Assembly (NCBI GenBank): GCA_038222225.1
Contig: JBBRHV010000007.1
Location: 27 to 64,026 of the forward strand
Length of the DNA stretch: 64,000 nt
Direction of reading: 5' to 3'
From: Candidatus Omnitrophota bacterium
GTDB taxonomy: Bacteria; Omnitrophota; Gorgyraeia; Zapsychrales; JANLHA01
Made by a program: the position numbers and the translations under genes. Below the pieces are notes generated by a model, which saw nothing but the letters and a program-made list of their open reading frames with translations, searched no databases and was not told the origin of the DNA. Positions 11,680 to 39,075 of the stretch are shown here, one piece after another (positions within the stretch are counted from its first letter, which is position 1; each line of letters starts with the position of its first letter).

Positions 11680-12471
11680 TCAGTTTCCTTCTTTAACCGA
11701 ACGCAGCAGATTATAATAACCGGAAAGCTTCAAAGCAAAATTGAACGGAATATCCAGGTCATTATTTTTAACTTTCACTCTCTTCAATGCAAAAAGATCC
11801 GTGTTCAACCGCTGAGCCCCCCGGTTCGTCGTAAAGGCCCCCCGATACCCGGCCTCCCGCGCAACGGCCTTGGCCTGTTCTGTGAATCCCCCGACCGGAT
11901 AACATAAAAACCGCACGGCCAGACCCAGATGTTCATCGAGGTCTTGTTTTGAACCGAAGATCTCATCCCGCAGCTGCGCCTCACTTAGATCCGGCAGATA
12001 GGCATGGGTCCGGGTATGGCTGCCGAATGAGATCCCTCCGGCGGCCATCTCCTGGGCCTGCGGCCATGACAAAAGATGCTTGTCCTTATAAACGCTATCC
12101 ATCTTTTGGGTCTGAATAAAAATCGTGACCGGAACCGCGTATTTTTTAAAAATCGGAAATCCCTCCGTATAATTGTCCTCGGTCCCGTCATCAAAGGTGA
12201 TCGCGACCGTTTTAGACGGAAACCCTTTTCCGTTCTCAATGCCGTGGGCCAATTCTTCCAACGAGATCACTTGATAATGGCGCTCTTTTAAATACGCCAT
12301 TTGCCGTTCAAAATGACCGGCTGAAACATACAAAGACCCTTGCCCATCGCCGAGGTAATGATACATCAGGACCGGAACCGTATAGCGGGGCCGAAGCCAT
12401 GCCTGATAAAATGCTCCCAGCCCAACGGCGATCAGCGTGATCGCGATCAAAAACGAACGTGATTTTCTCAT
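11680..12471 (-). CDS. Polysaccharide deacetylase (CE4 / NodB-homology) with an N-terminal TM anchor.
   Basis: The NodB motifs VPVLMYHYL and ITFDDGTEDNY are present. Confidence 0.75.
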   Translation of the reverse strand: MRKSRSFLIAITLIAVGLGAFYQAWLRPRYTVPVLMYHYLGDGQGSLYVSAGHFERQMAYLKERHYQVISLEELAHGIENGKGFPSKTVAITFDDGTEDNYTEGFPIFKKYAVPVTIFIQTQKMDSVYKDKHLLSWPQAQEMAAGGISFGSHTRTHAYLPDLSEAQLRDEIFGSKQDLDEHLGLAVRFLCYPVGGFTEQAKAVAREAGYRGAFTTNRGAQRLNTDLFALKRVKVKNNDLDIPFNFALKLSGYYNLLRSVKEGN

Positions 12472-12483: not shown

Positions 12484-13650
12484 TTACAGATGTGTTTCCA
12501 GAAATTTCCCGACTGTCTCTGCGACATACTCCAGCTGAGGCAGTTCAATGTCCTGATGAATGCCGATATGCGTGCCGTGATCAGAACAGTATTCCGCTTC
12601 CGGAAAATCACCGAGTTGATGGCCGAGAAACGCATAGCTGGGGCATTGGGTCGGCATCGAATAAAAAAGGTTGCGGGAATCAACGCCCTGACCGTCCAAA
12701 TAACGGACGAACTGTTCTTTGGTGAATTTCAGGCCGGGCTTTAAAATGATCGAAAACGCGTGCGGTCCGATCTTTTCTCCTTCTTCTTCACGAATATAAA
12801 TAAAATATTCCTCGAACTTTTTGAACCGTTCGATCAGATACAATAAGTTGCGGCGGCGTTTTTCAAAGATCTGATGAAAGATATGGATGTTGCCTAAACC
12901 GACCGCGGCCTCGATCTCATTCATCTTGGAGGAAAACCCGATGCGCTTAAAATCAAATTTGTTCACCATCCCATGATTGCGCAACGACCTTAGCGCCTCT
13001 GCCTTCTGCGGGTCGTCGGTGATGACCATTCCTCCTTCAATGCTGGTAATGATGTGCGCCGCATACAGACTGAAGGCCGCCATATCTCCGATGGTTCCGG
13101 CTAAGCGGCCATGGTATTCTGCTCCGTGGGCTTCGGCCGTATCTTCAACGACCAACAGATGCTGCTTTCTTGCGATCGCCATGATCGCGTCCATCGCGGC
13201 AGGTTTCCCCATCAGATGAACCGGCATAATGGCGCGCGTGCGCTCCGTGATCGCGGCCTCAATTTTTTCAGGATCGATATTGAGCGTCTCGCGTTTGACA
13301 TCCACAAAGACCGGCGTCAGTCCGGCCTGAAAAACCGCATTACCGGTCGCGACAAACGATAACGCCGGAACGATCACCTCATCGCCGCGCCGAGCGCCGT
13401 AATCATAAACAACGGCCAGCGCCAGGGCGTCGGCATCGGTGCCACTGGAAACCGCAACCGCCTCCTTGACCTTAAACAGATCCGCAAAAGCCCGCTCGAA
13501 TTCACGCACGATCTTGCCGTTGGTGACAAAGGTTTCATCCAACGCGTTCTTGATCAGCGCTCGCGCTTCGTCGGTGATTGAAACTGTCCCGAAGGGAACC
13601 TTGTAGCCCGCCTTCGTTTCCACACTTTGATTGGCACGCGCGTCTTTCAT
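12484..13650 (-). CDS. DegT-family enzyme with the PLP lysine replaced by histidine (FSLYAAHIITSIEGG). It is predicted to be a ColD/E1-like PMP-dependent NDP-4-keto-6-deoxy-sugar 3-dehydratase rather than an aminotransferase.
   Basis: Aligned against the paralogue at 9482-10585, Lys in FSFYPTK aligns with His in FSLYAAH. The Lys-to-His change is the known signature of ColD and AscC-type 3-dehydratases. The protein has few Cys, so it is not an Fe-S E1 type. Confidence 0.7.
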   Translation of the reverse strand: MKDARANQSVETKAGYKVPFGTVSITDEARALIKNALDETFVTNGKIVREFERAFADLFKVKEAVAVSSGTDADALALAVVYDYGARRGDEVIVPALSFVATGNAVFQAGLTPVFVDVKRETLNIDPEKIEAAITERTRAIMPVHLMGKPAAMDAIMAIARKQHLLVVEDTAEAHGAEYHGRLAGTIGDMAAFSLYAAHIITSIEGGMVITDDPQKAEALRSLRNHGMVNKFDFKRIGFSSKMNEIEAAVGLGNIHIFHQIFEKRRRNLLYLIERFKKFEEYFIYIREEEGEKIGPHAFSIILKPGLKFTKEQFVRYLDGQGVDSRNLFYSMPTQCPSYAFLGHQLGDFPEAEYCSDHGTHIGIHQDIELPQLEYVAETVGKFLETHL

Positions 13651-14369
13651 GGCTGATCATCCTTTCGAAATTCCTGCCGCGCCTGCTGCAGGCGGTCAGG
13701 AGTGCCGATATCTAAAAATCCCGATTCAACCGGATAGGCGAACACCCCACTGTCTAAAATCTTTGGAAAAAACTGCGTTTCAACAGAAAACTTCTCCTCC
13801 GCCGGCATCAGCTCAAAAGCCCGCGGCTCAAAACAATATAGACCGACGCTGACAAATCCTGTGGTTAACGTTTTTTCTTTTTCGCGGAAAGAAACCACCC
13901 GCTGCTTTGCGTCAAATTCAACTGTGCCGTAATCCTGCGCGTCTTCTCTCGAACAGACCGCCAAGGTAACGATGCCCTTTTGGGAATCATGAAAGCGCAG
14001 CATATCAGCGATCGGTATATCAAAAAGGCAATCGCCGTTCATGATGATCCATTTCTTGGCCTGAGCGAATGATTGCGCGAACTTGATCGCGCCGCCCGTG
14101 CCTAACGGATACGGCTCGCGGGAAATCTCAATCTCCAATCCAAAGTCATGCTGACGCGCCACCTGCTCGATCTGTTCGGCGCCGAAGCCGGCGGCCAACA
14201 CCACATGCCTGGCCCCCTGGCGTTTTAAGCGTTCCAGCTGGATCGCCAAAAAAGGGCGGCCGCCGATGTCGACCGCAACTTTCTGCTTTTCTCCGATCGT
14301 CGAACGCAGCCGCGTGCCCAGCCCCCCGCACAAGATCAGCACATCAATATCTAAGACGTCTGTCGGCAT
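13647..14369 (-). CDS. hddC: Sugar-phosphate nucleotidyltransferase, HddC-like (D-glycero-alpha-D-manno-heptose-1-phosphate guanylyltransferase family).
   Basis: The motif LILCGGLGTRLRS (G-x-G-T-R) and a GlmU-N-like fold are present. It directly abuts the GHMP kinase. Confidence 0.65.
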   Translation of the reverse strand: MPTDVLDIDVLILCGGLGTRLRSTIGEKQKVAVDIGGRPFLAIQLERLKRQGARHVVLAAGFGAEQIEQVARQHDFGLEIEISREPYPLGTGGAIKFAQSFAQAKKWIIMNGDCLFDIPIADMLRFHDSQKGIVTLAVCSREDAQDYGTVEFDAKQRVVSFREKEKTLTTGFVSVGLYCFEPRAFELMPAEEKFSVETQFFPKILDSGVFAYPVESGFLDIGTPDRLQQARQEFRKDDQP

Positions 14370-15368
14370 CTAAACCACTTTCCCGGTATTGGGTTGATAA
14401 AAAATGATCTGCGACCCCGCATCCTCAAACTTGATCGGCACCTGCAAATATTTCTTGAGCGCCTGGCGCACCTGCGGCTGACGCTCCGGCGGAACGAAGA
14501 GAAGCACAAACCCTCCTCCGCCTGCGCCCAGCAGTTTCCCGCCTAAGGCCCCATTTTTCATCGCGGCTTCATACATGGCATCAATTTCAGGAGTGGCGAT
14601 CTTATCAGACAGCGACTTTTTCAGTTTCCAGCTTTCATCCAAAAGACGCCCAAAATCATTCAGCTCTCCATGATTAAGAATTTCCAGCGATTGAACAGCC
14701 ATCTCATACATCGTTTGCAATTCGGCTGTTCGGGCAGGAATATTACGAATTTGATGCTCGGCAATTTTAGAAGCCAGGCGCGAAAATCCGGTAAAAAATA
14801 TCATCAGATGATCCTGCAGGTTCTGGATCTTTTCTTTTCCAACAGTGACCTGCCTGACCTTCAAATGATTGTCGCCGCCGAATTCAATAAAATTAAAACC
14901 TCCGTGAGCGACCAGCGTCTGATCCTGACAACCGACAATATCCTTGCAAAGGTCCTGCTCAATATGAATGGCCTCGCGCGCCAACTGATCTTTGGTCGGC
15001 ATCGTGCCCAGAAGGGCATATAAAGAGTTGAGCAGTCCCACCGTGAAAGAAGAGCTGGAGCCCAATCCTGTGCGCGCCGGAAGGTCCCCGTCATGATGGA
15101 TCTCGATCCCCTCCTGAATCTTCAAGAACCGCAAAACCTCGCGCACGGCCGGATGGTCAATGTCGTCAATCGCCTGGACAAGTTCGATCTGTGAATACAT
15201 GATCCGTGATTTATGTTCAAAAAACGGCGGCAGGTAGCGGCAGGTGATATAACAATATTTATCGATGGTGGTGGCCAGAACCGCCCCTTTGTGATCTTGG
15301 AACCAATCCGGATAATCCGTTCCTCCACCGAAAAATGACACCCGAAATGGCGTGCGGCTAATAATCAT
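14370..15368 (-). CDS. hddA: GHMP kinase, HddA-like (D-glycero-alpha-D-manno-heptose 7-phosphate kinase).
   Basis: The N-terminus MIISRTPFRVSFFGGGTDYP is characteristic of heptose-7-P kinases. The GHMP ATP motif GLGSSSS is present. Confidence 0.65.
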   Translation of the reverse strand: MIISRTPFRVSFFGGGTDYPDWFQDHKGAVLATTIDKYCYITCRYLPPFFEHKSRIMYSQIELVQAIDDIDHPAVREVLRFLKIQEGIEIHHDGDLPARTGLGSSSSFTVGLLNSLYALLGTMPTKDQLAREAIHIEQDLCKDIVGCQDQTLVAHGGFNFIEFGGDNHLKVRQVTVGKEKIQNLQDHLMIFFTGFSRLASKIAEHQIRNIPARTAELQTMYEMAVQSLEILNHGELNDFGRLLDESWKLKKSLSDKIATPEIDAMYEAAMKNGALGGKLLGAGGGGFVLLFVPPERQPQVRQALKKYLQVPIKFEDAGSQIIFYQPNTGKVV

Positions 15369-16869
15369 ATCCTGCCTCCTCTAAAATCCTTCGTTTGAGT
15401 TTGATCTGAGTCGAACGCAATGTTTCATCCACGGCCAGCTGCCCGAATTTTTCTTTGAGCATCCCCAAAAATTTCGGATTCGTATGATAGATCATCCAGG
15501 CTTTGTCCCGAAACGCCAGAACCTCCTCGGCGCTCAGATGTTTGGTCGGCAACGGCTGCGCGTCATACGAATGCTGTGAAAATCCGGCATAGCTCCGGGG
15601 GAGTTTCCACCCTTCACGGATGGCCAAGCCATACAGCGGGCTTCCCGGATAAGCCATCGCGCAATAAAAATTCGCCATTTCTGTGTTTAACCTCATGGCC
15701 AGGTCCAGCGTCTCCTGCATACTCTGCCGATCATCTTCCGGCAGCCCAAAAATATAATTGGCGGCGACCGATATTCCGCTATTCCGGATCATCCGGACAA
15801 CGTCCTCGATGTCCACCTCTTCAAAGCGCCCCTTGGCGACACTGCGGCGGACGCGTGTATTTCCGCTTTCAATGCCCAGGGACAAAAAATTGATCCCGGC
15901 CCGTTTCATGATGTCCAAATATTCACCGCGGATCATATCCACCCGGGCGTAACACCAGATGTTGAAATCATATCCGCGCTCAATGATCAGTTCGCACAAT
16001 TTTAAAAAATGCTCTTTTTTAAAAACAAAAAGTTCATCGGCAATTTTGATATTCCTGATTCCCATTTTGGCGAAACGCTCGAAATCCCGGATAATGAATT
16101 CCGGGTCCCAGTGACGGAAAACCGCGCTTCCGTCCGAATAGATGTTTTCCTGACGGTTGATGATGTTGATCATACAGAACGAGCACTTCATGGGACACCC
16201 TAAACTCGTATAGATCGAAACAAACGGCTCACGCACACAGTCATTGGGGAGCGCGTGCCACAACGCCGTGCGGTAACGCTCCATCGGCAAAAGGTCCCAA
16301 GCCACGCCGGGCAGCTCACGCTCCAAATCCTGCTGCGCAACGATGGCAGACGGCGAATTAAGGATCATGCGCTCGCCGTCCCTCCAGCCTAAACCGCGGA
16401 CCTCCCCAAGGCTTAAAGAGAGGTCGGTTGCCAAAAGAGCGGAGATCGTATACACGCCCTCGTTTTGGCAGACAAAATCAATGCACCCGTGCTTCTCCAA
16501 GGTTTCATACGGTAAAGCCGCCACATGCGCGCCCACAAAAAGAATTTTTTGATCCAAAGCAGCGGAGCGCAATTTCTCCGCCAGGCGCAACGCGCCTTCC
16601 ATATTCTGCGTGGAAGCGCTGGGATGCTGCCCGTAAATCACAAAGGCCGCCAATCGAGGACGCGCTTCCATGATCCGCTGAATCGCTTCTTCGTCGCTTA
16701 GCTGCAGTGCTTCAGTATCCAGAATGTTTGTGACGAAGCCGTGCAAACGGACATGACCGGCAAGCATCCCGGCCCAAAGCGGCGGTTCGATCGCTGAATA
16801 GGCCTTATTTAAATCCTGATAAATAATTTCAGCGGCATTCGCATGTATGAAAAGAATATCTAACGGCAT
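15358..16869 (-). CDS. B12-binding radical SAM enzyme (class B rSAM; candidate C-methyltransferase or sugar-modifying rSAM).
   Basis: An N-terminal B12-binding domain is followed by the radical SAM core with CPMKCSFC (CX3CX2C). It is the first gene after intergenic repeat island 1. Confidence 0.75.
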   Translation of the reverse strand: MPLDILFIHANAAEIIYQDLNKAYSAIEPPLWAGMLAGHVRLHGFVTNILDTEALQLSDEEAIQRIMEARPRLAAFVIYGQHPSASTQNMEGALRLAEKLRSAALDQKILFVGAHVAALPYETLEKHGCIDFVCQNEGVYTISALLATDLSLSLGEVRGLGWRDGERMILNSPSAIVAQQDLERELPGVAWDLLPMERYRTALWHALPNDCVREPFVSIYTSLGCPMKCSFCMINIINRQENIYSDGSAVFRHWDPEFIIRDFERFAKMGIRNIKIADELFVFKKEHFLKLCELIIERGYDFNIWCYARVDMIRGEYLDIMKRAGINFLSLGIESGNTRVRRSVAKGRFEEVDIEDVVRMIRNSGISVAANYIFGLPEDDRQSMQETLDLAMRLNTEMANFYCAMAYPGSPLYGLAIREGWKLPRSYAGFSQHSYDAQPLPTKHLSAEEVLAFRDKAWMIYHTNPKFLGMLKEKFGQLAVDETLRSTQIKLKRRILEEAGYDY

Positions 16870-17063: not shown

Positions 17064-17996
17064 TTATATATTCGCATACTGACTGCGCTTAATAATCTTA
17101 TACGCCTTGATCAATTCCGCAATGCCGGCCTGCAGCGAATGGTCCGGCTTAAATCCAGCAGCCTCGATCTTCGCGTTGGAAACAATATAATCCCGTTTGT
17201 CCGGATCTTCGTTGATGTCTGACTCAACAAAATAAAAATCCGGGATCACTTTTTTGATCTCTTCGCAAAGCTGCCACTTGCTTAAATTGGCGTCACTCAA
17301 ACCGACGTTATACGCTTCATTTTTCATCGCGTCAAAATGGTTCAGCCCATAAGAAAAAGCCTTGGCGACGTCGCGCACATGAATAAAATTCCGGCGGAAT
17401 TTCGCTTCAAAAATAACCAGGTAACGGTCATAGACAGCCCGGTAGGTAAAATCATTCACTAAAAGGTCCAGTCGCATGCGCGGGCTGACCCCAAACGCCG
17501 TTGCCAACCGCAATGTGATGGCGTTTCCGTCTTGAAGAATAGATTCTTCCGCCTCAACTTTCAGCTGACCATATAATGAGACCGGCCTCAATGGCGTCTG
17601 CTCCGTGCAAAGTTTGTCTCTCTCTCCTATGCCATAACCGCTATTGGTCGTTGGATAAATAATGATCTGGTTTTTACTGCGCAGTTTTAAGATCATCTGT
17701 ACTGCGCCAACGATCACGCCGCGCGCAGCATCCGGATCGGTCGCGCACAAAGGCGCCCCTGTTAGGCACGCCAGAGGAAAGACCGCGTCGGCCGTCTTCA
17801 TCAGGCGCTGCATCAACGAAGAATCCCTGGCATCTCCCCGCACAATATCCAAGTTGGGATTCACGCAGCAATCCAGCAACGAGCTCTGCTTATACATAAA
17901 ATTATCCACAACCGTAACGGTGTGGCCTTCCTCAAGAAAACGGGGAACCAGAACCGAACCAATATAACCGGCCCCGCCGGTGATCAAGATTTTCAT
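17064..17996 (-). CDS. NAD-dependent epimerase/dehydratase (extended SDR) with an intact GGAGYIGS, catalytic Ser and YGQLK.
   Basis: The Rossmann motif MKILITGGAGYIGS is present. TNSGYG and YGQLK form the S/YxxxK triad. Confidence 0.8.
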   Translation of the reverse strand: MKILITGGAGYIGSVLVPRFLEEGHTVTVVDNFMYKQSSLLDCCVNPNLDIVRGDARDSSLMQRLMKTADAVFPLACLTGAPLCATDPDAARGVIVGAVQMILKLRSKNQIIIYPTTNSGYGIGERDKLCTEQTPLRPVSLYGQLKVEAEESILQDGNAITLRLATAFGVSPRMRLDLLVNDFTYRAVYDRYLVIFEAKFRRNFIHVRDVAKAFSYGLNHFDAMKNEAYNVGLSDANLSKWQLCEEIKKVIPDFYFVESDINEDPDKRDYIVSNAKIEAAGFKPDHSLQAGIAELIKAYKIIKRSQYANI

Positions 17997-18928
17997 ATCA
18001 AAAGTCCTTTTTTAAGTGCTGCCTCCCAAAGACGGACCAGGCCTTCGCGCAGCACAGTCTTGGCCATCCATCCCCTCGTCTGTATCGGGCTGACCTCCAG
18101 CAATCTCTGGAAATCTTCATCCTGGATTTTTTCGTCATATTCGATCGTTCCTTCGAATCCGGAAATATCCCGGATCATTTCCGCTAAATCCCGGGTCGCA
18201 ATATCCACCCCGGATCCAATGTTGATCGGCTCCGCCTCCTCGTAGTGACGCATTAAAAACTCACAGGCACTGGCGAAATCCTCTGAGAACAAAAATTCCC
18301 TGCGGATATCAGGATTTTTTAAAACACGGACCTTCTCCCGTCGGTCAGCCGCCGCCTGAATAAAAAGCTCAACCAGATCAGACAAAAAACCACTTTGATC
18401 ATCACCCTCTTCTTTGCGCGGACCATAAATAGACGGCGCAATGGCAACCACCGCATTAAAGCGATACTGCAGACGGTAAGCCTCACACATCGCGATTCCG
18501 GCGATCTGACTGATCGCGCTGGATTGACTCTGTGGATCCAACGGTCCGGTGACAACATAATCTTCTCTCATCGGCTGAGGGCATTGGCGGGGATACACAT
18601 CAGAGTCCGCCAGATAAAGCAGCTTTTTTGAGCCTAAACGATAGGCCGCATCTATGATCTGCGTCTGGCTCATCATGTTCATAAGAAAATATTCTGCCGG
18701 ACGATGCGGCGGCTTAGCCGTGTCTTGAGAAGCCAACGAATCCAAGATCACGTACTCCGGCTGATAATCCTTAAAAAAATCATCCACGGCCTGGCGGTTT
18801 AACGTGTCCAGATCAACCGCCCCTGCCGTTAACAGGCGCCGATAACCTTCGGCTTCGAAATATTCAATGATCGCCTGTTCTTTAGCCTCCTGATGTCCGG
18901 CAATGAAAATAGTGGCTTCATGATCCAT
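17993..18928 (-). CDS. GDP-L-fucose synthase (Fcl/GMER) homologue with a degenerate active site. It lacks the GxxGxxG, the Ser/Tyr/Lys triad and the Cys. It is a probable pseudoenzyme or non-catalytic partner.
   Basis: It aligns with E. coli Fcl along its whole length (IFIAGH, AVDDFF, FLMNMMSQTQIIDAA, QPMRED, QIAGIAMCEAYRLQY, NIGSGVDIATRDLAEMI, RLLEVSPIQTRGW). However GHRGMVGSA is replaced by GHQEAKEQA, LGSSC by LADSD, and PYAIAK by SSAISQ. It has a 4-nt overlap with the downstream SDR gene. Confidence 0.7.
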   Translation of the reverse strand: MDHEATIFIAGHQEAKEQAIIEYFEAEGYRRLLTAGAVDLDTLNRQAVDDFFKDYQPEYVILDSLASQDTAKPPHRPAEYFLMNMMSQTQIIDAAYRLGSKKLLYLADSDVYPRQCPQPMREDYVVTGPLDPQSQSSAISQIAGIAMCEAYRLQYRFNAVVAIAPSIYGPRKEEGDDQSGFLSDLVELFIQAAADRREKVRVLKNPDIRREFLFSEDFASACEFLMRHYEEAEPINIGSGVDIATRDLAEMIRDISGFEGTIEYDEKIQDEDFQRLLEVSPIQTRGWMAKTVLREGLVRLWEAALKKGLLI

Positions 18929-18932
18929 ATTC

Positions 18933-19988
18933 TTAACTCACCTTTTTTGTTCTAATCACCTCTAAGACCGCTTCTTTAATATCTTTCGCGCCCAGATAAA
19001 ACGCCTGTTCCAGCGTATAGCCCGCCGGTGTTGGAAGATCCGGCAGCGCGACCCGTTTGGGCGCGCATGTCAGATCATGAAAAGCGCGTTCGGTCACCTG
19101 GGCAATGACCTCAGCCGCGAACCCGCCGGTTGTCCAGGCCAGATCCGCCACAATCAGCCGTCCGGTTTTTTTAACCGAAGCCAAGATCGTTTCGATATCC
19201 AATGGTCGGATCGTTCTGGGATCGATCACCTCGACTTCAATTCCGTCAGCAGCCAGTTCATCCGCCGCCCGCAACGATTCGATCACCATATGCGAAACCG
19301 CCACAATCGTCACATCACTCCCTTCGCGCTTCACCGCGGCTTCTCCAAACGGGATCGCGTACATATGTTCAGGAACGCAGCTTTGATGTTTATACAGCCA
19401 TCGGTGTTCAAAAAATAAAACTGGATTGTTATCAGCAACACCGGAAATAAACAGTCCTTTGGCATCATAAGCCGTCGCTGGAAGAGCGATCTTTAGACCG
19501 GGAACATGGTGAAACAAGCCGTGCAGGGCTTGGGAATGCTGCGCGGCAGACCCCCATCCTCTGCATACACAGGCACGGATCATGACAGGCAACGGCACTT
19601 GCCCGGCAAACATATAACTCCATTTTGCGGCGTGATTCACGATCTGATCCATGGCCATCAAAAGAAAGTCTGGGCGGTTGTGAATCACAATCGGCCGCAT
19701 GCCGGCCATGGCCGCCCCCAAAGCAATACCGATGGCAGCCTCTTCGTTTAACGGCGTATCAAAAACCCGCTCTAACCCGTATTTCTTGAACAACCCCGTT
19801 GTGGTACCGAACATCCCCTGAGGATCATTGATTCCCTGCCCCATCGCAAACACCCGCGGATCATACTCCAGCGACTGATCGAGCGCCTCAAACAACGCCT
19901 TTTCAAAATCCAGCTTACGCGCGTTATCCCCGGCGTTCTCATCGAATTCAGGCTCTTCACTCTCAACTTGTAGTTTTGTCCAAGGCAT
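18933..19988 (-). CDS. TPP-dependent dehydrogenase E1 component beta subunit (transketolase-like C-terminal/pyrimidine-binding).
   Basis: The motifs DPRVFAMGQGINDPQGMFGTTTGLFKKYG...RVFDTPLNEEAAIGIALGAAMAGMRPI are typical of E1beta. Confidence 0.8.
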   Translation of the reverse strand: MPWTKLQVESEEPEFDENAGDNARKLDFEKALFEALDQSLEYDPRVFAMGQGINDPQGMFGTTTGLFKKYGLERVFDTPLNEEAAIGIALGAAMAGMRPIVIHNRPDFLLMAMDQIVNHAAKWSYMFAGQVPLPVMIRACVCRGWGSAAQHSQALHGLFHHVPGLKIALPATAYDAKGLFISGVADNNPVLFFEHRWLYKHQSCVPEHMYAIPFGEAAVKREGSDVTIVAVSHMVIESLRAADELAADGIEVEVIDPRTIRPLDIETILASVKKTGRLIVADLAWTTGGFAAEVIAQVTERAFHDLTCAPKRVALPDLPTPAGYTLEQAFYLGAKDIKEAVLEVIRTKKVS

Positions 19989-20008
19989 AATTCACGGTTT
20001 CCTTTAAT

Positions 20009-21013
20009 CTATTCAACAAACAGATATTTCGTAAGATCGCGCGCATCAGGCAAAGGGCTGTTTTGCGCGAACACGAACGCCTCTCCGACATCCCGATCAA
20101 CTCGCGTTCTGATCTCTTGAACGCGGCTTGAATCAAGAAGCCCTTCCTTTAGAACGTGTGCAATAAACTCTTCGATCGGATCCCTCCGATACCCTTTTGT
20201 AAATTCCTCCGGCATTCGATACAATTGCGCACTCGCGTCCCCCGGTCCGACATGCATCCTCCATCGCTGAACAACATATTCCAAAACAAACGGACCCTTG
20301 CCTGAACGCGCGTGGCTGACGGCCTGAGCGGCTGAGGCATACACATCCAGCGGATTCATCCCGTCAACACGGCATGACGGGATATCAAAAGCCCGTGCGC
20401 GCTTGTATAAATATTCGTTGGCCTCCCGGACCGAAAGGTGGGAATTGACCGAATAGAAATTGTTTTCGATCACAAAAACGACCGGCACTTTTTTAAGCGC
20501 AGCCCAGCCCATGCTTTCATAAAAAACACCCTGCTGGCATGCCCCGTCGCCGAGAAAAACAACGGCGATCGAATCTTTCTTCTGCATCTGAAATGCCAAT
20601 GCGGCTCCCACCGCATGCGGTGTGGCTCCCGCGACAATGGCTGAAGAGCCCCAATGACCGACCTCTTTAGCGACCAAGTGCATCGAGCCGCCGCGCCCGC
20701 TCGAACAGCCGGTTTCGCGACAGTAGAGCTCTGCGATCATCGCGCCTAAGTTCCCGCCCTTCGCCAAATAATGAGCGTGGCTGCGATGATTGCTGAAGAC
20801 CGCATCCTCTGTTCTTAAATGCATACACACGCCGGCTGAAACCGCTTCCTCACCCAAACTCAAATGGACCGGGGTCTTCATCTCATCCAAGTGATAAAGT
20901 TCTTCAATCTTGAGCTCCGTGACCCGGATCAGCAGCATCTTTCGCAAAAATTCAGCGGTCTGCTCGCCAGTCAGGTTCGGTACGGAAAACTGTGCGCAAT
21001 CGTTTTTGGCCAT
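20009..21013 (-). CDS. TPP-dependent dehydrogenase E1 component alpha subunit.
   Basis: The TPP motif GDGA...x27...ENN is present (VFLGDGACQQG...VIENNFYS). The start is taken at the internal Met (MAKNDC) 2 nt after the upstream stop. No E2 or E3 lies nearby. Confidence 0.8.
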   Translation of the reverse strand: MAKNDCAQFSVPNLTGEQTAEFLRKMLLIRVTELKIEELYHLDEMKTPVHLSLGEEAVSAGVCMHLRTEDAVFSNHRSHAHYLAKGGNLGAMIAELYCRETGCSSGRGGSMHLVAKEVGHWGSSAIVAGATPHAVGAALAFQMQKKDSIAVVFLGDGACQQGVFYESMGWAALKKVPVVFVIENNFYSVNSHLSVREANEYLYKRARAFDIPSCRVDGMNPLDVYASAAQAVSHARSGKGPFVLEYVVQRWRMHVGPGDASAQLYRMPEEFTKGYRRDPIEEFIAHVLKEGLLDSSRVQEIRTRVDRDVGEAFVFAQNSPLPDARDLTKYLFVE

Positions 21014-21015
21014 CT

Positions 21016-21966
21016 CTAAAAACACCCTTTCTCCTGAAACCATGTAATGGTCTCACGCAATCCTTCTTGCAACGGCACCATCGGCTCCCACTTCAGCAGG
21101 CGTTTGGCAAGCGAAATGTCCGGACGCCGTCGTTTCGGATCATCCGTCGGAAGCGGTTCGAACTTCATTTCACTTTTTGAGCCCGAAAGCTTTAACACAA
21201 GCTTGGCAAACTGGATCATGGTAAATTCCATCGGATTGCCGATATTGACCGGACCGACATAATCTGAACGCAACAATCTATAAATTCCCTCGATCAGGTC
21301 ATAGTAATAACAGAATGACCGCGTTTGCCGCCCTGATCCGTAAACGGTCAAGGGCTTCCCATGCAGCGCCTGATAAATAAAATTAGGAACAACACGACCG
21401 TCGTCAATGCGCATCCGCGGCCCGTAGGTATTAAAGATCCGCACAATACGGACATCGACCTTATGATAACGGTGATAGGCCAGCGTGATCGCTTCGGCAA
21501 ACCGCTTGGCTTCATCATAAACCCCGCGCGGGCCCGTCGGATTAACATGGCCCCAATAGGTTTCCTTCTGCGGATGTTCCAAAGGATCCCCATACACCTC
21601 CGAGGTCGAGGCTAAAAGAAAACGCGCCTTTTTGCCTTTTGCCAGTCCCAAAGCATTGTGCGTTCCCAACGACCCCACCTTAAGCGTCTGGATCGGATAC
21701 ATCAGATAATCGACCGGGCTTGCGGGAGAGGCGAAATGCAGCACATGATCCACCGGCGCTGAGATTTTGATCGGCTTGGAAATGTCATGCTTGATAAATT
21801 CAAAATATTTCTGTTTCTTCAGATGAGCAATATTTTTCAGGCTTCCGGTGATCAAATTATCAATACAGAACACCCGGTGCCCTTCTGACAAAAGAAGGTC
21901 GCATAAATGGCTCCCCAAAAATCCCGCTCCTCCTGTGATCACGGCATGTCTTTTACGTCCCATCAC
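21016..21966 (-). CDS. UDP-glucuronate decarboxylase (UDP-xylose synthase-like) SDR.
   Basis: Motifs [18 protein letters not shown] and [23 protein letters not shown] are highly characteristic of UXS/ArnA-decarboxylase enzymes. Confidence 0.8.
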
Positions 21967-21974: not shown

Positions 21975-23279
21975 TTATAAACGAACCACTTTTACGTTAC
22001 GGCTGGATTTGTACACATTGCGGGTATCAAAGATCAGCTGCGCGTGCTTGAGCACCGCCGGATAATTCACGCGGGAATGATCCGTCGCGATCACAACGCA
22101 ATCGTACTGCCGTAACGTTTTCGGTGAAAGTTTGACCGACTCCTTTTGATGAATATTGAAGATCTCCAAATACGGGATCAGCGGATCAAAGTAATCCACT
22201 CTCGCCGCCTGCTCCTGAAAGAGCCCGATCAGATTCAACGGCGGAGACTTGCGCAAATCCCGCACATCTTTTTTATAGGTAACCCCCATGACCAGGATCC
22301 TGGACTCCTTCAATGTCTTTCCTCTGTCCTGAAGAACTTGCGCAATGCGCCCGACGACATAAGCCGGCATCTGCGCGTTGGTATCGGCCGAGAGCTTAAT
22401 GTATTTTGAATCAAATCCATAGCGCCGCGCCTTCCAATATAAATAGAGCGGGTCATCCGGAATACAATGACCTCCGACGCCAAGCCCGGGATAAAAAGGC
22501 ATAAAGCCGAACGGTTTTGTTTTGGCGGCTTCAATGACTTCCCAAATATCGATCCCCATCTTTTCGCACATCATGGCCACTTCATTGATCCACCCGATAT
22601 TGATGATCCGAAACGAATTCTCCAGCAATTTGGTCATCTCCGCCGCGTCCGCGGAAGAAACCACATGAATGACTTTGATGATCTTGGAATACAGCTCTTT
22701 GGTTAAGGCGGTGCTCTTGGCATCCAGGCCGCCAACGACTTTCGGAATACGCGTGACATCATACGTCTTGTTGCCCGGATCAATGCGCTCCGGCGAAAAC
22801 GCCAGAAAGAAATCTTTCCCTGCTTTCAGCCCGGACTTTTCCAATTCCGGCCGAATCATTTCCCGTGTGGTGCCCGGATAGGTCGTACTCTCCAGCACAA
22901 CCAGAACGTCCCGCTTTAAATATTTCCGAAGCGTCCTGACCGCGCCCATGATGAACGAAACATCCGGCGTATATTTGCTTTTTAAAGGAGTCGGCACGCA
23001 GATGATCACGACATCCGTTTCCGCCAAATGTTCAAAATCCGTGGATGCCGAAAGATGGCCGCTGCGCACAACACTCGCCAGTTCCTTCTGCGGAATATCG
23101 GCGATATAACTTTTATGCGCTGAAACTCTGTTGACACGATCCTCATCCGTATCCAGCCCATAGACCTTAAATCCCACTTTCGCGAAATTGACGGCCAACG
23201 GCAATCCGACATACCCTAAGCCCAGGACAGAAATAACCGCCTTTTTCGTTCTAAGCTTTCTTAAAAGCTGCGTGCTCAT
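21975..23279 (-). CDS. NDP-sugar dehydrogenase (UDP-N-acetyl-hexosamine/mannosamine dehydrogenase, WecC/TviB-like).
   Basis: The UDPG_MGDP_dh family N-terminus [16 protein letters not shown] is present. The start is taken at the Met of MSTQLL, ahead of the Rossmann motif. Confidence 0.8.
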
Positions 23280-23298
23280 CCCTCCGCCCTCCCTTTCT

Positions 23299-24639
23299 CT
23301 AAACAGACCCCTTCGCGCCGTTCTGGCCGCGGCCGATCCCATAATATTCGAACCCCAACCGTTCCAGATTTTGATGGCTATAAAAATTCCGCCCATCAAA
23401 AAGAATCGGCTGTTTCATTAATTTCACGATCCGCGCGAAATCCAAGCGGCTGAATTCCTCCCATTCGGTTAACAGCACCAGACAATCGCACCCTTTAACC
23501 ATCGTGTAGACATCTTTAGAATAAACCACCTTTTTCAAAACCTTTTTCGCGTTCTCCATAGCCTGCGGATCATACACCCGGACCTGGGCCCCTTCGGCCA
23601 AAAACATCTGAATAATGTCCGTCGACGGAGCTTGACGCATATCATCCGTGTCCGGCTTAAAAGCCAGCCCCAGCACCCCGATCGTCTTGCCTTTCAGAAT
23701 CCACAGTTTATCCTCGATCAAATGCACAAAAGCTTTTTTCTGCGCCTCATTGATATTACGGACTTCTTTCAATAATTCAAATTCATAACCGCTGCGCTGA
23801 CTTAAACGGATAAAAGCATCCACGTCCTTTGGGAAACAGCTCCCGCCATAACCGACCCCGGCGTTGAGAAAGGCCCGGCCGATCCGCTTGTCATGCCCCA
23901 TGCCTTCGGCGACTTTGAGCACATCCGCCCCGACCCGGTCGCAGATTTGCGCGAGGGCGTTGGCAAATGAGATCTTTGTGGCCAAAAATGAATTGGAGGC
24001 GTGTTTGATGATCTCCGCCGAATTGATATTGGTCACCACCATTTTCGGTTTCAACGGCTTATAAATTTCCCGCAATAATTCCTCGGCGCGCTTGGACTCT
24101 ACGCCGACCACCACCCGATCCGGCTTCATAAAATCTTCAATGGCCGAACCCTCCCTCAAAAATTCGGGATTCGAAGCCACATCAAAGACAATGGCCTGCT
24201 TTGCGCCTTTACGGTGTTTCTGCGGAAGATTGAGCATGATCGTGCGCTTGACTCTCTGGCCGGTCTCCGCCGGAACCGTGGACTTTTCAACGATCAGCTT
24301 ATAGCAATCCATGTTTTCGGCGATCTGTCGGGCCACATTCTCAACATAGGTCAGATCCGCATCGCCGTTCTTCTTGGAAGGTGTTCCGACCGCGATAAAG
24401 ATCACGTCCGATTTTTGTGTGGCCTGACGGATAGAGGTGGTAAACGTCAGCCGCTTCTTCTTGCACAAATGCGCCATCATGTCTGCAAGGCCGGGCTCAT
24501 AAATCGGACATACGCCCTGATTCAGGCCTTTGATCTTTTTCTCATCGTTGTCAATACAGATCACCTGGTGGCCGATCTCCGCCAAACACACGCCGGTAAC
24601 CAACCCTACATATCCTGCGCCGATCACTGCTATATTCAT
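23299..24639 (-). CDS. ugd: UDP-glucose 6-dehydrogenase.
   Basis: The N-terminus MNIAVIGAGYVGLVTGVCLAEIGHQV and IYEPGL are present, as is the catalytic Cys region GGSCFPKD. Confidence 0.8.
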   Translation of the reverse strand: MNIAVIGAGYVGLVTGVCLAEIGHQVICIDNDEKKIKGLNQGVCPIYEPGLADMMAHLCKKKRLTFTTSIRQATQKSDVIFIAVGTPSKKNGDADLTYVENVARQIAENMDCYKLIVEKSTVPAETGQRVKRTIMLNLPQKHRKGAKQAIVFDVASNPEFLREGSAIEDFMKPDRVVVGVESKRAEELLREIYKPLKPKMVVTNINSAEIIKHASNSFLATKISFANALAQICDRVGADVLKVAEGMGHDKRIGRAFLNAGVGYGGSCFPKDVDAFIRLSQRSGYEFELLKEVRNINEAQKKAFVHLIEDKLWILKGKTIGVLGLAFKPDTDDMRQAPSTDIIQMFLAEGAQVRVYDPQAMENAKKVLKKVVYSKDVYTMVKGCDCLVLLTEWEEFSRLDFARIVKLMKQPILFDGRNFYSHQNLERLGFEYYGIGRGQNGAKGSV

Positions 24640-24671
24640 ACACCCCATCCTTTCGGTCGAAAATCGATGCT

Positions 24672-26783
24672 TTATTGTGTGCCTGGACGCTCAGCCCCGC
24701 CGCTCCATCCGCGATTGATGCCGAGTTTCATATCCGGAAATTCTTTTAATGAAAATATCAGCCAAACTTCTTCACCGTTAAATTCTCTCTTATTGAATGT
24801 CAACTCCATCAGCCACGTATGAAGATCCCTCACAAAACTGTATTCCTGTTCTTTGCTTTGCCCGGCCTTAAGATCATAACGCTGACGAACGCGAAAATCC
24901 CATTTCGGGTTCAGCTTCAGGCCAAGCTCAGTATCGATCTGATTATCAAGTTGTCTCTGGTAACGATCAGAGATGCGGACATGCCACAACTTGCCGGGAT
25001 CATTGATATACACTTCAAAATTGGCGGTTTTGACATCTTTAAGATCAACATCATATTCGCTGTCCGCATAAAATCCCAGCCAATCATACGGAGTGACCTC
25101 GACATCCAGAAACAAATTATCCCATTTGTCATTACGCGGGCCCTCTTCCCTGAACAGATAATGGGTATAGACCGTGCTGCGGATCAGGTCCACGCTCTGC
25201 TCATCCCGTTTTGTTTGGAACTTGTTTTCCACAGACAGCTTGACCCGGTCTTGATGCGTAAGCGCGTCAATCCCGTCGTATTGATCAAGTTCCCTGACCG
25301 AAATCGTAGGATCATGCCTGTACAGATAGGCCAACGACGGCGTGATGATATGCCGCAGCTGATGAATATCCAGGCCGAACATATTGGTTTGGGCATTATA
25401 GACACGATAAAATTTGGTGCTGGCATCCATCCCTGTCTCAAAAATACCGCGCACCGTGTTATAATCATCCTGGTTGACCGCGCGGCTGTAATAGGTCTGA
25501 CGCATTCCAGCAAAGGGACGTGTTTCAATAAATCCGATCTTCCATGGCCGGGAAAGTTCATTGGCAAAATCCGCGCGCTGCGTCCGGCGGTCATTGAAAT
25601 CGCTGGGCTTGGCTTGCTTTTTGACCAAATTGGAATACGAGCTGCTGTTCTTCAAATAGAACTCTGAATCGAAAACCTCCATGCTCGGCAAAGAATAACT
25701 GACCTCCGGAAGCCTCTCAACGGCTGCCGTAAACGGATTCACCCGGTAATCGGTACGCGCGGCCACCGTTCCGTAAGAGAGCGCTTTTGTCGCCACCACA
25801 TAGCTCTTCGGCGTGGAATTCTGGTCAAATTCCGGCTCGAAATAATCCTTTAAAAAATCACCGTCACTCAGCCGGTAATACTGGGACGTCACGGTTGTCT
25901 GCTCATCCACATTCCACTTGTGCTGCCATTCCACCTTATACCGTTCTTTTTCCACGGCCAGTTTATTCTCATCCCAGATCCGGACATTGCCGATATCCCG
26001 CTCATGAGTGTAATATGTTCGTAAAATGCCGGTCCCGAAATTTTGCGTTTGATACGCATCATCCACGCCCCAGGCAAATCCTTTGCGTTCGCGCGTATCC
26101 GCATGAAAAACCAGTTGATGATTTTTCAGACTATTATTGTGATAACGGCCGAGCACAAACCCTCCCCACTCGCCGGAATATCCGGGTGTCAGGATGATCG
26201 TGGGCTTGCGTCTGGCAAGATCAACGGTATAGCGCGGCAGATAAAACACCGGCACTTTGCCGATCTTAAATTTTACACTACGCGCGACAGCCTTGTCTCC
26301 CGGATACACATCAATGGTGCGCGCCTTCAGCCGTGTTTCAGGATTATCGAAATCCGACGTGGTCACATAACCGTCATCGATCCGGAAATGCTCATCCTCT
26401 AACCGCATAATACGCTTCCCCTTGCCGAACAACGGCGGGGCAACCATTTCCGGCTCCTCAAAACCACCGGTCATGGTTTTAAAGTTAAAGGTCATCTGAT
26501 TGCCTTCGACACGCTGTCCGTTGCGTTCAAGAATAACATTGCCCATGGCCTCGGCTTCCTGCGAATCCCGATCATATTCGATCCGGTCTGCCGTCAGAAG
26601 AACATCACCCCGGGATACCGTGACGTTCCCGCTGGCGATGACCTTATTCTCTTCAACCGAATATTCCATTTGATCGCCGTTGATCTCAACCGAGGACAGT
26701 TCCTGCTGGGCATATCCGTTCAAAGGGCTCATCAGAAGCATACAGAACATCACACCCGCGCACCGAATAAGAATTTTTCTCAT
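24672..26783 (-). CDS. lptD: LPS-assembly outer-membrane protein LptD/OstA family, with signal peptide.
   Basis: An OstA-like N-domain (EINGDQMEYSVEENKVIASGNVTVSRGDVLLTADRIEY) precedes a long beta-barrel region rich in aromatic and alternating residues. The start is taken at MRKILIRCAGVMFCMLLM. Confidence 0.75.
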   Translation of the reverse strand: MRKILIRCAGVMFCMLLMSPLNGYAQQELSSVEINGDQMEYSVEENKVIASGNVTVSRGDVLLTADRIEYDRDSQEAEAMGNVILERNGQRVEGNQMTFNFKTMTGGFEEPEMVAPPLFGKGKRIMRLEDEHFRIDDGYVTTSDFDNPETRLKARTIDVYPGDKAVARSVKFKIGKVPVFYLPRYTVDLARRKPTIILTPGYSGEWGGFVLGRYHNNSLKNHQLVFHADTRERKGFAWGVDDAYQTQNFGTGILRTYYTHERDIGNVRIWDENKLAVEKERYKVEWQHKWNVDEQTTVTSQYYRLSDGDFLKDYFEPEFDQNSTPKSYVVATKALSYGTVAARTDYRVNPFTAAVERLPEVSYSLPSMEVFDSEFYLKNSSSYSNLVKKQAKPSDFNDRRTQRADFANELSRPWKIGFIETRPFAGMRQTYYSRAVNQDDYNTVRGIFETGMDASTKFYRVYNAQTNMFGLDIHQLRHIITPSLAYLYRHDPTISVRELDQYDGIDALTHQDRVKLSVENKFQTKRDEQSVDLIRSTVYTHYLFREEGPRNDKWDNLFLDVEVTPYDWLGFYADSEYDVDLKDVKTANFEVYINDPGKLWHVRISDRYQRQLDNQIDTELGLKLNPKWDFRVRQRYDLKAGQSKEQEYSFVRDLHTWLMELTFNKREFNGEEVWLIFSLKEFPDMKLGINRGWSGGAERPGTQ

Positions 26784-26784
26784 A

Positions 26785-27717
26785 TTATTTGACCTGCTGT
26801 TCTTGGTTAACCAGAATTTGAGCCCCGATAATACCGGCGTCATCACCCAGACGGGCGCGTACGATCCGGACCATGTTCCCCTGAACGGCCATGGCCCGCG
26901 CCTTAATGGCCCGTCGAACCGCCGGAAATAAAAATTGATGGCTGCGCGATACGCCGCCGCCGATCACAATATGTGTTGGATTCAGCAGATTGACCATGCC
27001 GATCAAGCCGGTCCCGATCAGCTCACCCGCTTCTTGCCAAAACCGCAGCGCCTGAGCATCCCCGGATTTCGCCAATCGAAAAACATCTTCCAGGGCTATG
27101 CCTTTACGTTTGAAGATCGCTTCGGCACGCTTTTGCAGCCGGGTGTTGCCGACAAACGTTTCAAAGCAGGCAAACGATCCGCAGTTGCATTTGGGCCCTT
27201 TGAAATTGATCGGCATATGACCGAGCTCACCGGCGGCAAACCCCGCACCCCGATACAGTTTCCCATCCAGGATGAGTCCGGCGCCGACACCTGTTCCCAA
27301 AGTCATCCCCACCATGTTGCGGCATCCATGCCCTGCGCCAAACCCCCACTCACCAAGAGTGATGAGATTGACATCATTCTCCAGGTACACCGGCAAACCT
27401 AAACACTTTTCCAGTTTTGCTTTTAAGGGAACATTACGCCAGCCCGGAATATTCGGAAGGAAAATAACGATACCGTCTTTGGGATTGATCAAACCCGGCA
27501 ACCCAATACCAACCCCTTGAACTTGTTTCTTAGAAATTCCGCTTTCTGAAATAAGCGTTAAGACCGCCTCAGCCAATACCTTGATCAGCCGCTGCTTATC
27601 AGAACCATAAGTTTTTGTGATTAAACGGGTTCGGTGAAAAACCGAGCCCTTTGGATCAATGAGACCGATCTTGATATTTGTCCCGCCAACATCCACGCCT
27701 ACGGTATATTTTTTCAT
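26785..27717 (-). CDS. ROK-family sugar kinase (glucokinase/N-acetylhexosamine kinase) with a zinc motif.
   Basis: VGVDVGGTNIK and the ROK motif GHMPINFKGPKCNCGSFACFE are present. Confidence 0.85.
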   Translation of the reverse strand: MKKYTVGVDVGGTNIKIGLIDPKGSVFHRTRLITKTYGSDKQRLIKVLAEAVLTLISESGISKKQVQGVGIGLPGLINPKDGIVIFLPNIPGWRNVPLKAKLEKCLGLPVYLENDVNLITLGEWGFGAGHGCRNMVGMTLGTGVGAGLILDGKLYRGAGFAAGELGHMPINFKGPKCNCGSFACFETFVGNTRLQKRAEAIFKRKGIALEDVFRLAKSGDAQALRFWQEAGELIGTGLIGMVNLLNPTHIVIGGGVSRSHQFLFPAVRRAIKARAMAVQGNMVRIVRARLGDDAGIIGAQILVNQEQQVK

Positions 27718-29223: not shown

Positions 29224-29241
29224 AACGCTCCCTTTTCCCCT

Positions 29242-35570: not shown

Positions 35571-35630
35571 GTATTTTTTAAAGGCACTGGGACACTAGTT
35601 GATTTTTAGTGTCATCGTGCCGTAGTGTCT

Positions 35631-39069: not shown

Positions 39070-39075
39070 GCGCTA

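Follow-up and report, generated by a model that had tools for sequence, protein, structure and literature searches.

E1-type enzymes, also termed alphaKADH2, install two-carbon (C2) branches in several antibiotic pathways, and about 120 clusters are predicted to carry such a branching enzyme (2025 review, PMC12247030). KbDH-alpha/beta of the kibdelomycin pathway couples pyruvate to ketones in vitro, the C2 branch of aldgamycin has knockout and feeding evidence behind it, and the branches of kosinostatin, paulomycin, trioxacarcin, avilamycin and everninomicin have been proposed or inferred from structure (PMC12247030). For everninomicin, a 4-keto-pentose released by EvdS6 is the proposed acceptor of EvdU5/EvdS3, giving eurekanate (PMC10338323). 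Here, we analyzed a 64,000-nt stretch of a Candidatus Omnitrophota genome (contig JBBRHV010000007.1, positions 27 to 64,026; referred to as the window), in which adjacent E1alpha and E1beta genes (18933-21013, minus strand) lie in an operon tightly packed with sugar genes. Judging from sequence comparison, this pair probably takes a two-carbon unit from pyruvate and attaches it as a branch to a keto-sugar nucleotide destined for the cell surface.

In the lipopolysaccharide (LPS) of Gram-negative bacteria, branching has been attributed to the unrelated YerE/ErwE family (PMC4753412, PMC9306805), and yersiniose and erwiniose arise by thiamine diphosphate (ThDP)-dependent addition to a 3-deoxy-4-keto nucleoside diphosphate (NDP) sugar (PMC9306805). 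In Campylobacter jejuni, Cj1427 and the HS:5 C3-dehydratase make GDP-D-glycero-4-keto-3-deoxy-heptose (PMC10680097). The pair in the window is similar to AviB1/B2, Pau11/12, TxnB3, EvdU5/EvdS3, AlmDI/DII and KbDH-alpha/beta in that E1alpha and E1beta are split, E2 and E3 are missing, and the surrounding genes act on NDP-sugars. It differs from the actinomycete antibiotic clusters in its host, which is Gram-negative, uncultivated and Omnitrophota-like, and in the LPS-linked character of the locus (LptD, heptosyltransferase). Moreover, its partner genes point to a GDP-heptose-type substrate, unlike the TDP/UDP-deoxyhexoses or pentoses of the actinomycetes, and a B12-radical S-adenosylmethionine (SAM) enzyme and a GHMP kinase are constant companions of pairs of the window type.

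An E1alpha/E1beta pair without lipoyl partners nearby

The two genes and their diagnostic sites are as follows.

20009-21013, minus strand: E1alpha, 334 aa counted from the ATG at 21013; PF00676 E1_dh, E 6e-63 (Pfam)
18933-19988, minus strand: E1beta, 351 aa; Transket_pyr, E 3e-30, and Transketolase_C, E 7e-38 (Pfam)
20459-20551, minus strand: ThDP/Mg-binding motif GDG(X)25ENN of E1alpha, residues 165-195 of the 344-aa open reading frame (ORF), with G165-D-G and E193-N-N
20240-20266, minus strand: loop RWRMHVGPG of E1alpha with the catalytic His264, from alignments of 88-94 E1alpha sequences

These genes, with 20 nt between them, do encode an E1alpha/E1beta pair of thiamine enzymes, as the initial annotation had read them. 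The second gene is E1beta because it has both the Transket_pyr and the Transketolase_C domain. In E1alpha, the ThDP motif aligns to GDGAANQG...ENNRYG of human E1alpha and His264 to the catalytic His of human pyruvate dehydrogenase (PDH) E1alpha, while Glu82 and His151 of E1beta correspond to the Glu that activates the cofactor and to the catalytic His in Geobacillus E1beta (PDB alignment). ThDP is predicted from this motif conservation to bind at the interface of the two subunits. Human PDH E1alpha is the best PDB match of E1alpha, at only 157 bits, and a weak partial match to TPP_enzyme_C was recorded besides the E1_dh/transketolase architecture (Pfam). The longest E1alpha ORF spans 20009-21043 on the minus strand (344 aa). 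The ATG at 21013 ('MAKND...') lies 2 nt past the TAG stop of the upstream UXS gene and is preceded by a GGAG/AAGGG stretch; since the 334 aa read from it equal the length of homologues with 75-77% identity, it is probably the true start.

That no lipoyl E2 or E3 lies close to the pair had also been noted initially, and two kinds of search agree. Pfam scans of the larger ORFs of the window (essentially all of them) detected no lipoyl, 2-oxoacid_dh or dihydrolipoyl dehydrogenase protein. In addition, tblastn with five E2, four E3 and one LipA references, taken from five annotated plasmid operons, gave zero matches at 1e-4 on both strands of the window and in 82 related loci (1.32 Mb) reaching about 10 kb around the E1 genes; as a positive control, the same queries gave 46 matches on their own operons. 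In all five E2-linked reference operons (L084-L088), E2 is adjacent to the E1 genes, with or without E3 and LipA.

These results bear on the view that the pair belongs, as an ordinary E1, to a lipoyl-dependent acetoin or pyruvate dehydrogenase complex with E2 and E3 encoded elsewhere, and stands among glycan genes only by coincidence. Among curated families, PDH E1alpha and E1beta do match best, all catalytic residues for reductive acetylation are retained, and acetoin-type references do not come cleanly apart in our tree. However, both subunits score under the curated PDH cut-offs (E1alpha 301 against 393.85 for TIGR03182; E1beta 313 against 321 for NF006667; NCBIfam), no E2, E3 or LipA gene lies within about 10 kb in any of the 82 related loci, compared with such genes adjacent in five of five references, and the operon is packed with sugar genes in a module that is kept across phyla. 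The loop after the catalytic His is different as well. The closest E2-dependent relatives are the E1 subunits of acetoin dehydrogenase (AcoA/AcoB; acetoin:DCPIP oxidoreductase), which have the same catalytic residues. Aco operons carry E2 (plus E3 and LipA) by E1 and their E1alpha has a shorter YRxxGHSxSD loop, and the pair in the window has neither feature. We consider an ordinary E1 very improbable.

For comparison with branching enzymes, the Streptomyces griseofuscus/rochei E1alpha, the best plasmid match, served as a bridge query to TxnB3 of the trioxacarcin cluster and to a Kibdelosporangium banguiense pair, and these stood in for AviB1/AviB2. The window E1alpha has 42% identity with TxnB3 across 312 residues and 49% with the K. 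banguiense E1alpha across 239, and E1beta is 46% identical, gapless, to the K. banguiense partner E1beta. The K. banguiense locus is taken as a kibdelomycin-type cluster because its E1alpha gene is surrounded by genes for a hexose 2,3-dehydratase, an EryCIII-type glycosyltransferase, a carbamoyltransferase and polyketide synthase (PKS)/nonribosomal peptide synthetase (NRPS) proteins. Identity to the window E1alpha is 35-37% for the acetoin-type E1alphas with a linked E2 (Enterococcus, Sinorhizobium, Aminobacter). The loop after the catalytic His reads YRxxGHSxSD in these proteins and RW(R)xHxGPG, at least 3 residues longer, in nearly all others; it is QRWRMHVGPGDASA in the window, 3 residues longer than in the Aco-type references, and RWREHVGP occurs in both TxnB3 and the K. 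banguiense E1alpha. EMKTPVHL and TGC(S/A)xGRGGSMH are also common to the group without E2. At the level of alignment, then, the RWRxHxGPG loop is a signature of the E2-independent group, and the actinomycete members that have the RWRxHxGP loop at 42-49% identity would lead one to expect pyruvate as donor and a keto-sugar as acceptor. The S. griseofuscus pair itself (L081; plasmid pSGRIFU1, 11998-14044) is 62-70% identical to TxnB3 and the Kibdelosporangium E1alpha.

In a neighbor-joining (NJ) tree of 88 E1alpha sequences, the window falls inside a 36-member clade (bootstrap 72%) and the E2-linked acetoin-type E1alphas group together (64%). Glycan-linked and acetoin-type sequences together split from PdhA and Bkd at 100%.

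The GDP-heptose-type module that accompanies the pair

Downstream of the pair, the operon encodes a set of enzymes resembling those of GDP-heptose metabolism.

17064-17996, minus strand: SDR3, a short-chain dehydrogenase/reductase (SDR) 58% identical to PDB 6VO6/6VO8 (E 2e-120, 179/308 gapless residues)
15358-16869, minus strand: B12-binding-domain radical SAM enzyme (Pfam; NCBIfam HpnJ, 152 bits)
14370-15368, minus strand: GHMP sugar kinase, HddA/WcbL-like (heptose-7-phosphate 1-kinase family; NCBIfam HddA, 154 bits)
13647-14369, minus strand: nucleotidyltransferase (NTP transferase), HddC/ManC-like, of guanylyltransferase type (NCBIfam HddC, 138 bits; mannose-1-P guanylyltransferase, 147 bits)
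12484-13650, minus strand: AT2, a His-type DegT protein ('FSLYAAHIITSIEGGM'; best NCBIfam match RfbH)

SDR3, as a relative of PDB 6VO6, which we take to be C. jejuni Cj1427, is a candidate generator of a 4-keto group. The GHMP kinase scores about 125-130 bits against the heptose kinases 4USK, 3K85 and 4N3O of the PDB. The radical SAM enzyme, whose best PDB match is AprD4 (6FD2, 74 bits) and which is kept in the module at 40-48% identity, is a candidate C-methyltransferase or AprD4-like diol dehydratase. In AT2, 'YAAHIIT' stands opposite 'FGNKIIT' of GDP-perosamine synthase (3BN1), so that a His aligns with Lys186; the same His is found in all AT2 homologues of the module, and the AT1 type encoded farther downstream keeps Lys. 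As His replaces the Lys that binds pyridoxal phosphate (PLP), AT2 is presumably a ColD-type, pyridoxamine phosphate (PMP)-dependent sugar 3-dehydratase and no transaminase, and with only 2 Cys it would be ColD-like, not of the Fe-S E1/RfbH type. An automatic label of 'DegT aminotransferase' would therefore mislead.

Relatives of the pair were collected in a one-genome-per-species scan with the motifs HR[SG]H[GA]HY[LI]A and GRGGSMHL[IV], which matched at least 595 loci. The following counts cover the best 80 of these (41-74% identity), whose ORFs were labelled by the proteins of the window itself. They belong to Omnitrophota, Planctomycetota, Desulfobacterota, Elusimicrobiota, Chloroflexota, Bacillota, candidate phyla radiation (CPR) bacteria and several archaeal groups, and the best one, an Omnitrophota metagenome-assembled genome (L001), is syntenic with the window throughout. 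Neighbors included homologues of SDR3 (31 loci), the GHMP kinase (26), the radical SAM enzyme (26), the NTP transferase (25), the AT2 type (22), the AT1 type (21) and the Fcl-like SDR (19), with UXS-level SDR1 and UGD in a handful only. Other recurring neighbors are SAM methyltransferases, glycosyltransferases of families GT2 and GT4, HAD phosphatases, SIS isomerases, Gfo/Idh/MocA oxidoreductases, SPASM radical SAM proteins, ManC-like guanylyltransferases and O-FucT-like transferases. The initial annotation had considered that the pair might group with acetoin dehydrogenases and have no link to sugar metabolism; what we found is that all 80 fetched relatives lie among nucleotide-sugar, glycosyltransferase or methyltransferase genes, and none beside E2/E3.

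The module SDR3-NTP-GHMP-E1a-E1b-(Fcl-like)-HisDegT-rSAM (rSAM, the radical SAM gene) is kept in Omnitrophota, Desulfobacterota, Planctomycetota, Elusimicrobiota and Chloroflexota; the delta-proteobacterium NaphS2 (L050) is a cultured organism that has it in full. Within 9 kb of the E1 genes, 29 of the 36 members of the window clade have at least one of the Cj1427-like, GHMP, His-DegT and radical SAM genes, and most of the others are on short contigs; SDR3 homologues (50-86% identity) adjoin E1 in 26 of the 36. Thus, the conserved partner of the E1 pair is the GDP-heptose-type module and not the UDP-glucuronate decarboxylase that stands directly upstream of it in the window. The genes on that side, and the SDR immediately downstream of E1beta, are listed below; they confirm the placement originally described, between a UDP-glucuronate decarboxylase and SDR genes (UXS upstream, SDR2 and SDR3 downstream).

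23299-24648, minus strand: UGD1, UDP-glucose 6-dehydrogenase-like (Pfam, NCBIfam)
21975-23399, minus strand: UGD2, UDP-N-acetylmannosamine (ManNAc)-dehydrogenase-like (Pfam, NCBIfam)
21016-21966, minus strand: SDR1, UXS-type UDP-glucuronate decarboxylase (human UXS1, E 3e-112, 378 bits)
17993-18928, minus strand: SDR2, GDP-L-fucose-synthase-like SDR (NCBIfam Fcl, 224 bits; PDB GDP-fucose synthase family), a candidate ketoreductase for the ring C4 or for a branch carbonyl

This arrangement suggests another acceptor for the same carboligase chemistry, namely UDP-4-keto-xylose released by the adjacent UXS-like enzyme, which would give a eurekanate-like C4-acetyl pentose. EvdS6, a glucuronate decarboxylase, can release a 4-keto-pentose, which has been put forward as the acceptor for an E1-like pair (PMC10338323). 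UGD1, UGD2 and UXS are directly upstream of E1alpha, with the UXS stop 2 nt from its start, this gene order is kept in L001, L002, L004, L005, L076, L090 and L091, and in L043 and L074, too, a UXS-like gene is found close to an E1 pair. On the other hand, UXS adjacency is confined to a 7-member subclade (bootstrap 96%), whereas the 36-member clade keeps the Cj1427-like/GHMP/HisDegT/rSAM module without UXS. The similarity of SDR1 to human UXS1 would imply the normal, reduced product UDP-xylose, and elsewhere the family is accompanied by GDP-sugar genes: other clades stand beside GmhA-like SIS, GmhB-like HAD or ManC-like genes (SIS and HAD genes are found in L018, L021, L029, L052, L056, L059, L063 and L074), and in a Bacillota clade the E1 genes are found with ManC-like, SDR and O-FucT-like genes. 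The UDP-pentose route is therefore considered unlikely, and because the GDP-heptose-type module travels with the pair across phyla, GDP-3-deoxy-4-keto-heptose would be the likeliest acceptor, though we propose this particular substrate only tentatively.

Some relatives have other arrangements. In archaea, CPR bacteria and Chloroflexota, a second module combines E1alpha/beta with a Lys-type DegT protein and SAM methyltransferases, often with a 4,6-dehydratase-like SDR (L020, L031, L033, L041, L044, L048, L058, L061, L067, L070, L073, L077, L080 and L082); this combination resembles the transaminated branch of kibdelomycin. In CPR bacteria and in DPANN or other archaea, sister clades likewise have the same enzyme paired with a true aminotransferase. 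One of these loci, on a plasmid of Azospirillum ramasamyi (L082), is near genes like those of the C. jejuni phosphoramidate pathway (cytidylyltransferase, amidohydrolase and PEP-utilising enzyme). The order HAD - SIS - SPASM radical SAM - E1a - E1b - GT2 - SPASM radical SAM, with the GmhA/GmhB-like genes directly upstream, was observed in L021, L030, L059 and L068, where the pair thus has another kind of radical SAM partner.

A candidate pathway to a branched sugar

The best reading of the locus appears to be a yersiniose-like pathway on GDP-3-deoxy-4-keto-heptose, with the E1 pair in place of YerE. A heptose phosphate would be converted to GDP-heptose by the GHMP kinase, a phosphatase encoded elsewhere and the NTP transferase. 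The Cj1427-like SDR3 would then oxidize GDP-heptose at C4, and the ColD-like AT2 would remove the 3-OH to give the 3-deoxy-4-keto form, two steps that have an exact precedent because C. jejuni HS:5 performs C4 oxidation followed by C3 dehydration (PMC10680097). At this point, the E1 pair, with ThDP bound between its subunits, would decarboxylate pyruvate to hydroxyethylidene-ThDP and, rather than transfer the C2 unit onto a lipoyl group, would add it to the carbonyl of the nucleotide-activated keto-sugar, in the role of YerE. This would yield a C-acetyl-branched sugar that bears a tertiary alcohol, the acetyl group being at C4. A neighboring reductase may turn the acetyl branch into a 1-hydroxyethyl branch, reduction and/or modification by the radical SAM enzyme may follow, and the final product would presumably be transferred to LPS. 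We infer these reactions from the presence and conservation of the genes. An AviB1/B2-type role, which the initial annotation had offered as plausible, gains support from the identities, the loop signature, the sugar-gene contexts and the precedents in the review.

The proposed route agrees with those of YerE/YerF (yersiniose A) and ErwE (erwiniose) in its sequence of 4-keto formation, PMP-dependent C3 deoxygenation, ThDP-dependent acyl addition at C4 and ketoreduction, and in its LPS setting. YerE and ErwE, however, are single-chain flavoproteins of acetolactate-synthase type acting on CDP-3,6-dideoxy-4-keto-hexose, whereas the window encodes an E1alpha/beta pair, which does not have the single-chain TPP_enzyme_N/M/C architecture that marks the YerE family; the pair may do YerE-like work and is not a member. 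Unlike in the YerE route, the 4-keto group would come from a Cj1427-like dehydrogenase, and there would be no 6-deoxygenation. Compared with the GDP-heptose enzymes of C. jejuni (HddA, HddC, Cj1427, HS:5 C3-dehydratase and C4-reductases), the window has a homologue for each step, and its GDP-fucose-synthase-like reductase and the reductases of C. jejuni belong to one PDB family. Here too there are differences: the kinase and nucleotidyltransferase of the window are distant from HddA and HddC, and GmhA is not in the window. As far as we know, the C. jejuni clusters have neither a ThDP enzyme nor a B12-radical-SAM enzyme.

Several observations weigh against this reading. The identity of 6VO6 with Cj1427, which we assume, was not confirmed by a literature search. 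The kinase scores 154 against an HddA cut-off of 600 and the nucleotidyltransferase 138 against an HddC cut-off of 300, so both are distant relatives; Pfam found neither GmhA nor GmhB in the window, and for these reasons the sugar might not be a heptose. GDP-fucose-synthase-like SDRs normally reduce a ring 4-keto group, which is a poor fit if the E1 pair consumes that ketone. In the lineage of the window, the pair is tightly coupled to UXS (the E1alpha start is just 2 nt from the UXS stop), and the function of its clade is deduced from sequence and gene context. In the NJ tree, acetoin-type references nest among glycan-linked sequences, and with deep nodes at bootstrap values of only 8-18% the two are not cleanly separated. 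In the phylogenetic comparison suggested by the initial annotation, the pair is nearer to TxnB3 (42%) and to the kibdelomycin-type pair (49%/46%) than to Aco-type proteins (35-37%) and has the loop of the former; the NJ tree does not decide for or against monophyly. As the deep order of the tree is unsettled, the placement rests on the indel/loop signature together with gene context.

A further such observation is that the S. rochei/S. griseofuscus plasmid relative stands in a PKS/NRPS region and has no sugar genes closer than 12 kb. This homologue (52% identical over 76% of the query) is located between regulators (gamma-butyrolactone) and genes for a condensation-domain protein, an acyl carrier protein, a phosphopantetheinyl transferase and a ketosynthase, which would suit an enzyme that delivers an activated C2/acyl unit or an aldehyde to something other than a sugar, such as a carrier protein, or one that simply decarboxylates 2-oxo acids. 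No carrier protein, PKS or NRPS genes were found in the window, however, where all immediate neighbors of the pair are nucleotide-sugar enzymes and glycosyltransferases, and such a function seems highly improbable for the pair studied here.

It is also conceivable that the pair builds or extends a carbon chain without making a C4 branch, leading to a higher-carbon sugar. A C2 unit could be added, in the manner of transketolase or DXS, to a sugar-phosphate aldehyde before activation, or to a side-chain carbonyl made on a heptose by the AprD4-like radical SAM enzyme. The fold that E1beta has in common with transketolase and DXS would allow this, SIS isomerase genes are directly upstream of E1a in L029, L063 and others, the diol dehydratase AprD4 is the best solved relative of the radical SAM enzyme, and an SDR similar to reductases of ring 4-keto groups is present. 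To our knowledge, no E1-type enzyme has been described that extends sugar chains, which counts against the idea. In addition, the nearest named relatives (TxnB3 and the kibdelomycin-type pair), which have the loop signature in common with the window, branch ketones on NDP-sugars, and the superfamily appears specialized for C2 branches from pyruvate (PMC12247030). Overall, chain extension looks doubtful, and C4 branching of a GDP-linked keto-sugar is preferred.

The class of enzyme has been described before; what appears new is that it occurs in LPS-linked loci of uncultivated Gram-negatives and is partnered with a GDP-heptose-type module. E1-type branching enzymes have so far been discussed almost only for actinomycete antibiotics, and this locus and its relatives, with at least 595 matches, suggest that environmental bacteria and archaea commonly use the E1-type solution. 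It is tied there to chemistry on GDP-sugars, probably heptoses, that structural studies have yet to report. It is possible, although the odds are somewhat against it, that a widespread and apparently undescribed pathway turns GDP-heptose into a C-branched, 3-deoxygenated nine-carbon sugar (or a form that the radical SAM enzyme modifies further) for the envelope of uncultivated anaerobes, with the E1 pair in the place of YerE. If so, its carriers would include Omnitrophota, Desulfobacterota, Planctomycetota, Elusimicrobiota and Chloroflexota. For glycobiology, the prediction is a branched deoxy-heptose in the envelope, and for enzymology, a new set of candidate ketone-accepting ThDP carboligases. 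It also follows for annotation that calls of 'pyruvate/acetoin dehydrogenase E1' in such genomes do not indicate a PDH complex. A presence of E1-like genes in Coxiella O-antigen regions was also considered, but the Coxiella papers searched did not confirm it and it was dropped.

Operon structure and the rest of the window

Every gene from about 8.7 to 42.5 kb is on the minus strand. In transcription order, the operon comprises the genes for a ROK kinase, LptD, UGD1, UGD2, SDR1, E1alpha, E1beta, SDR2, SDR3 and the radical SAM enzyme, followed by those for the GHMP kinase, the NTP transferase, AT2, a polysaccharide deacetylase, GT9, AT1 and GT2. Its junctions are overlaps or gaps of a few nt, with a single exception of 194 nt. 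The members not yet listed are:

24672-26846, minus strand: LptD, outer-membrane LPS insertase, immediately upstream of the UGD genes (Pfam LptD and LptD_N)
11680-12471, minus strand: polysaccharide deacetylase (Pfam)
10601-11674, minus strand: GT9, LPS heptosyltransferase II-type (NCBIfam 154, which passes the cut-off of 134.6)
9482-10585, minus strand: AT1, Lys-type DegT aminotransferase with Lys kept at the PLP site (Pfam)
8708-9460, minus strand: GT2 (Pfam)

The adjoining LptD gene marks the locus as LPS-linked. The ROK-LptD-UGD-UGD-UXS-E1ab synteny is also present in L001, L004, L005, L076, L090 and L091, and two independent assemblies (one a 3.36-Mb contig, ERZ21862645 ctg38531l, L090) have the order ABC-GGDEF-GGDEF-ROK-LptD-UGD-UGD-UXS-E1a-E1b-SDR-rSAM-GHMP-NTP-DegT-GT4-GT2-deacetylase according to precomputed Pfam labels, the same as in the window. 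The longest ORF of UGD2 has a TTG start and shares about 100 nt with the gene upstream; as its Pfam match starts at residue 56 and homologues have 433 aa, the true start is probably about 40-55 codons inside the ORF. The combination of UGD, UXS, DegT, deacetylase and GT2 was also considered as an Ara4N-like (4-amino-4-deoxy-arabinose) set and rejected, with no matches to ArnC/ArnD and no formyltransferase. A promoter/terminator scan of 8.5-28.4 kb was uninformative, as its signals were not above shuffled expectation, and an Rfam scan of the whole window gave no match.

The first 6.7 kb of the window, poor in ORFs, were examined as a possible rRNA region; this was rejected, and a giant ORF was found instead. 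A stop-free frame of at least 2255 aa (2-6766, minus strand), which runs off the left end of the window, contains FG-GAP, RHS-repeat and many fibronectin-III domains, and is closely preceded on its upstream side by an SpvB-domain ORF and an IS200-type (Y1) transposase (6685-7572 and 7788-8525, both on the minus strand). By its domains, this region looks like an Rhs/Tc-toxin-like surface protein abutting the glycan operon. On the other side, upstream of ROK-LptD, two tandem GGDEF diguanylate cyclases (one with GAF) and a MalK-like ATP-binding cassette (ABC) ATPase occupy 28207-31612 on the minus strand, and the GGDEF/GGDEF/ABC arrangement is kept with the glycan operon in the related genomes L003, L090 and L091. 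Still farther upstream, a heat-shock block, hrcA-grpE-dnaK-dnaJ plus clpB, was identified at 34416-42530 (minus strand), and the operon is therefore placed in an ordinary chromosomal context, not in a mobile island.

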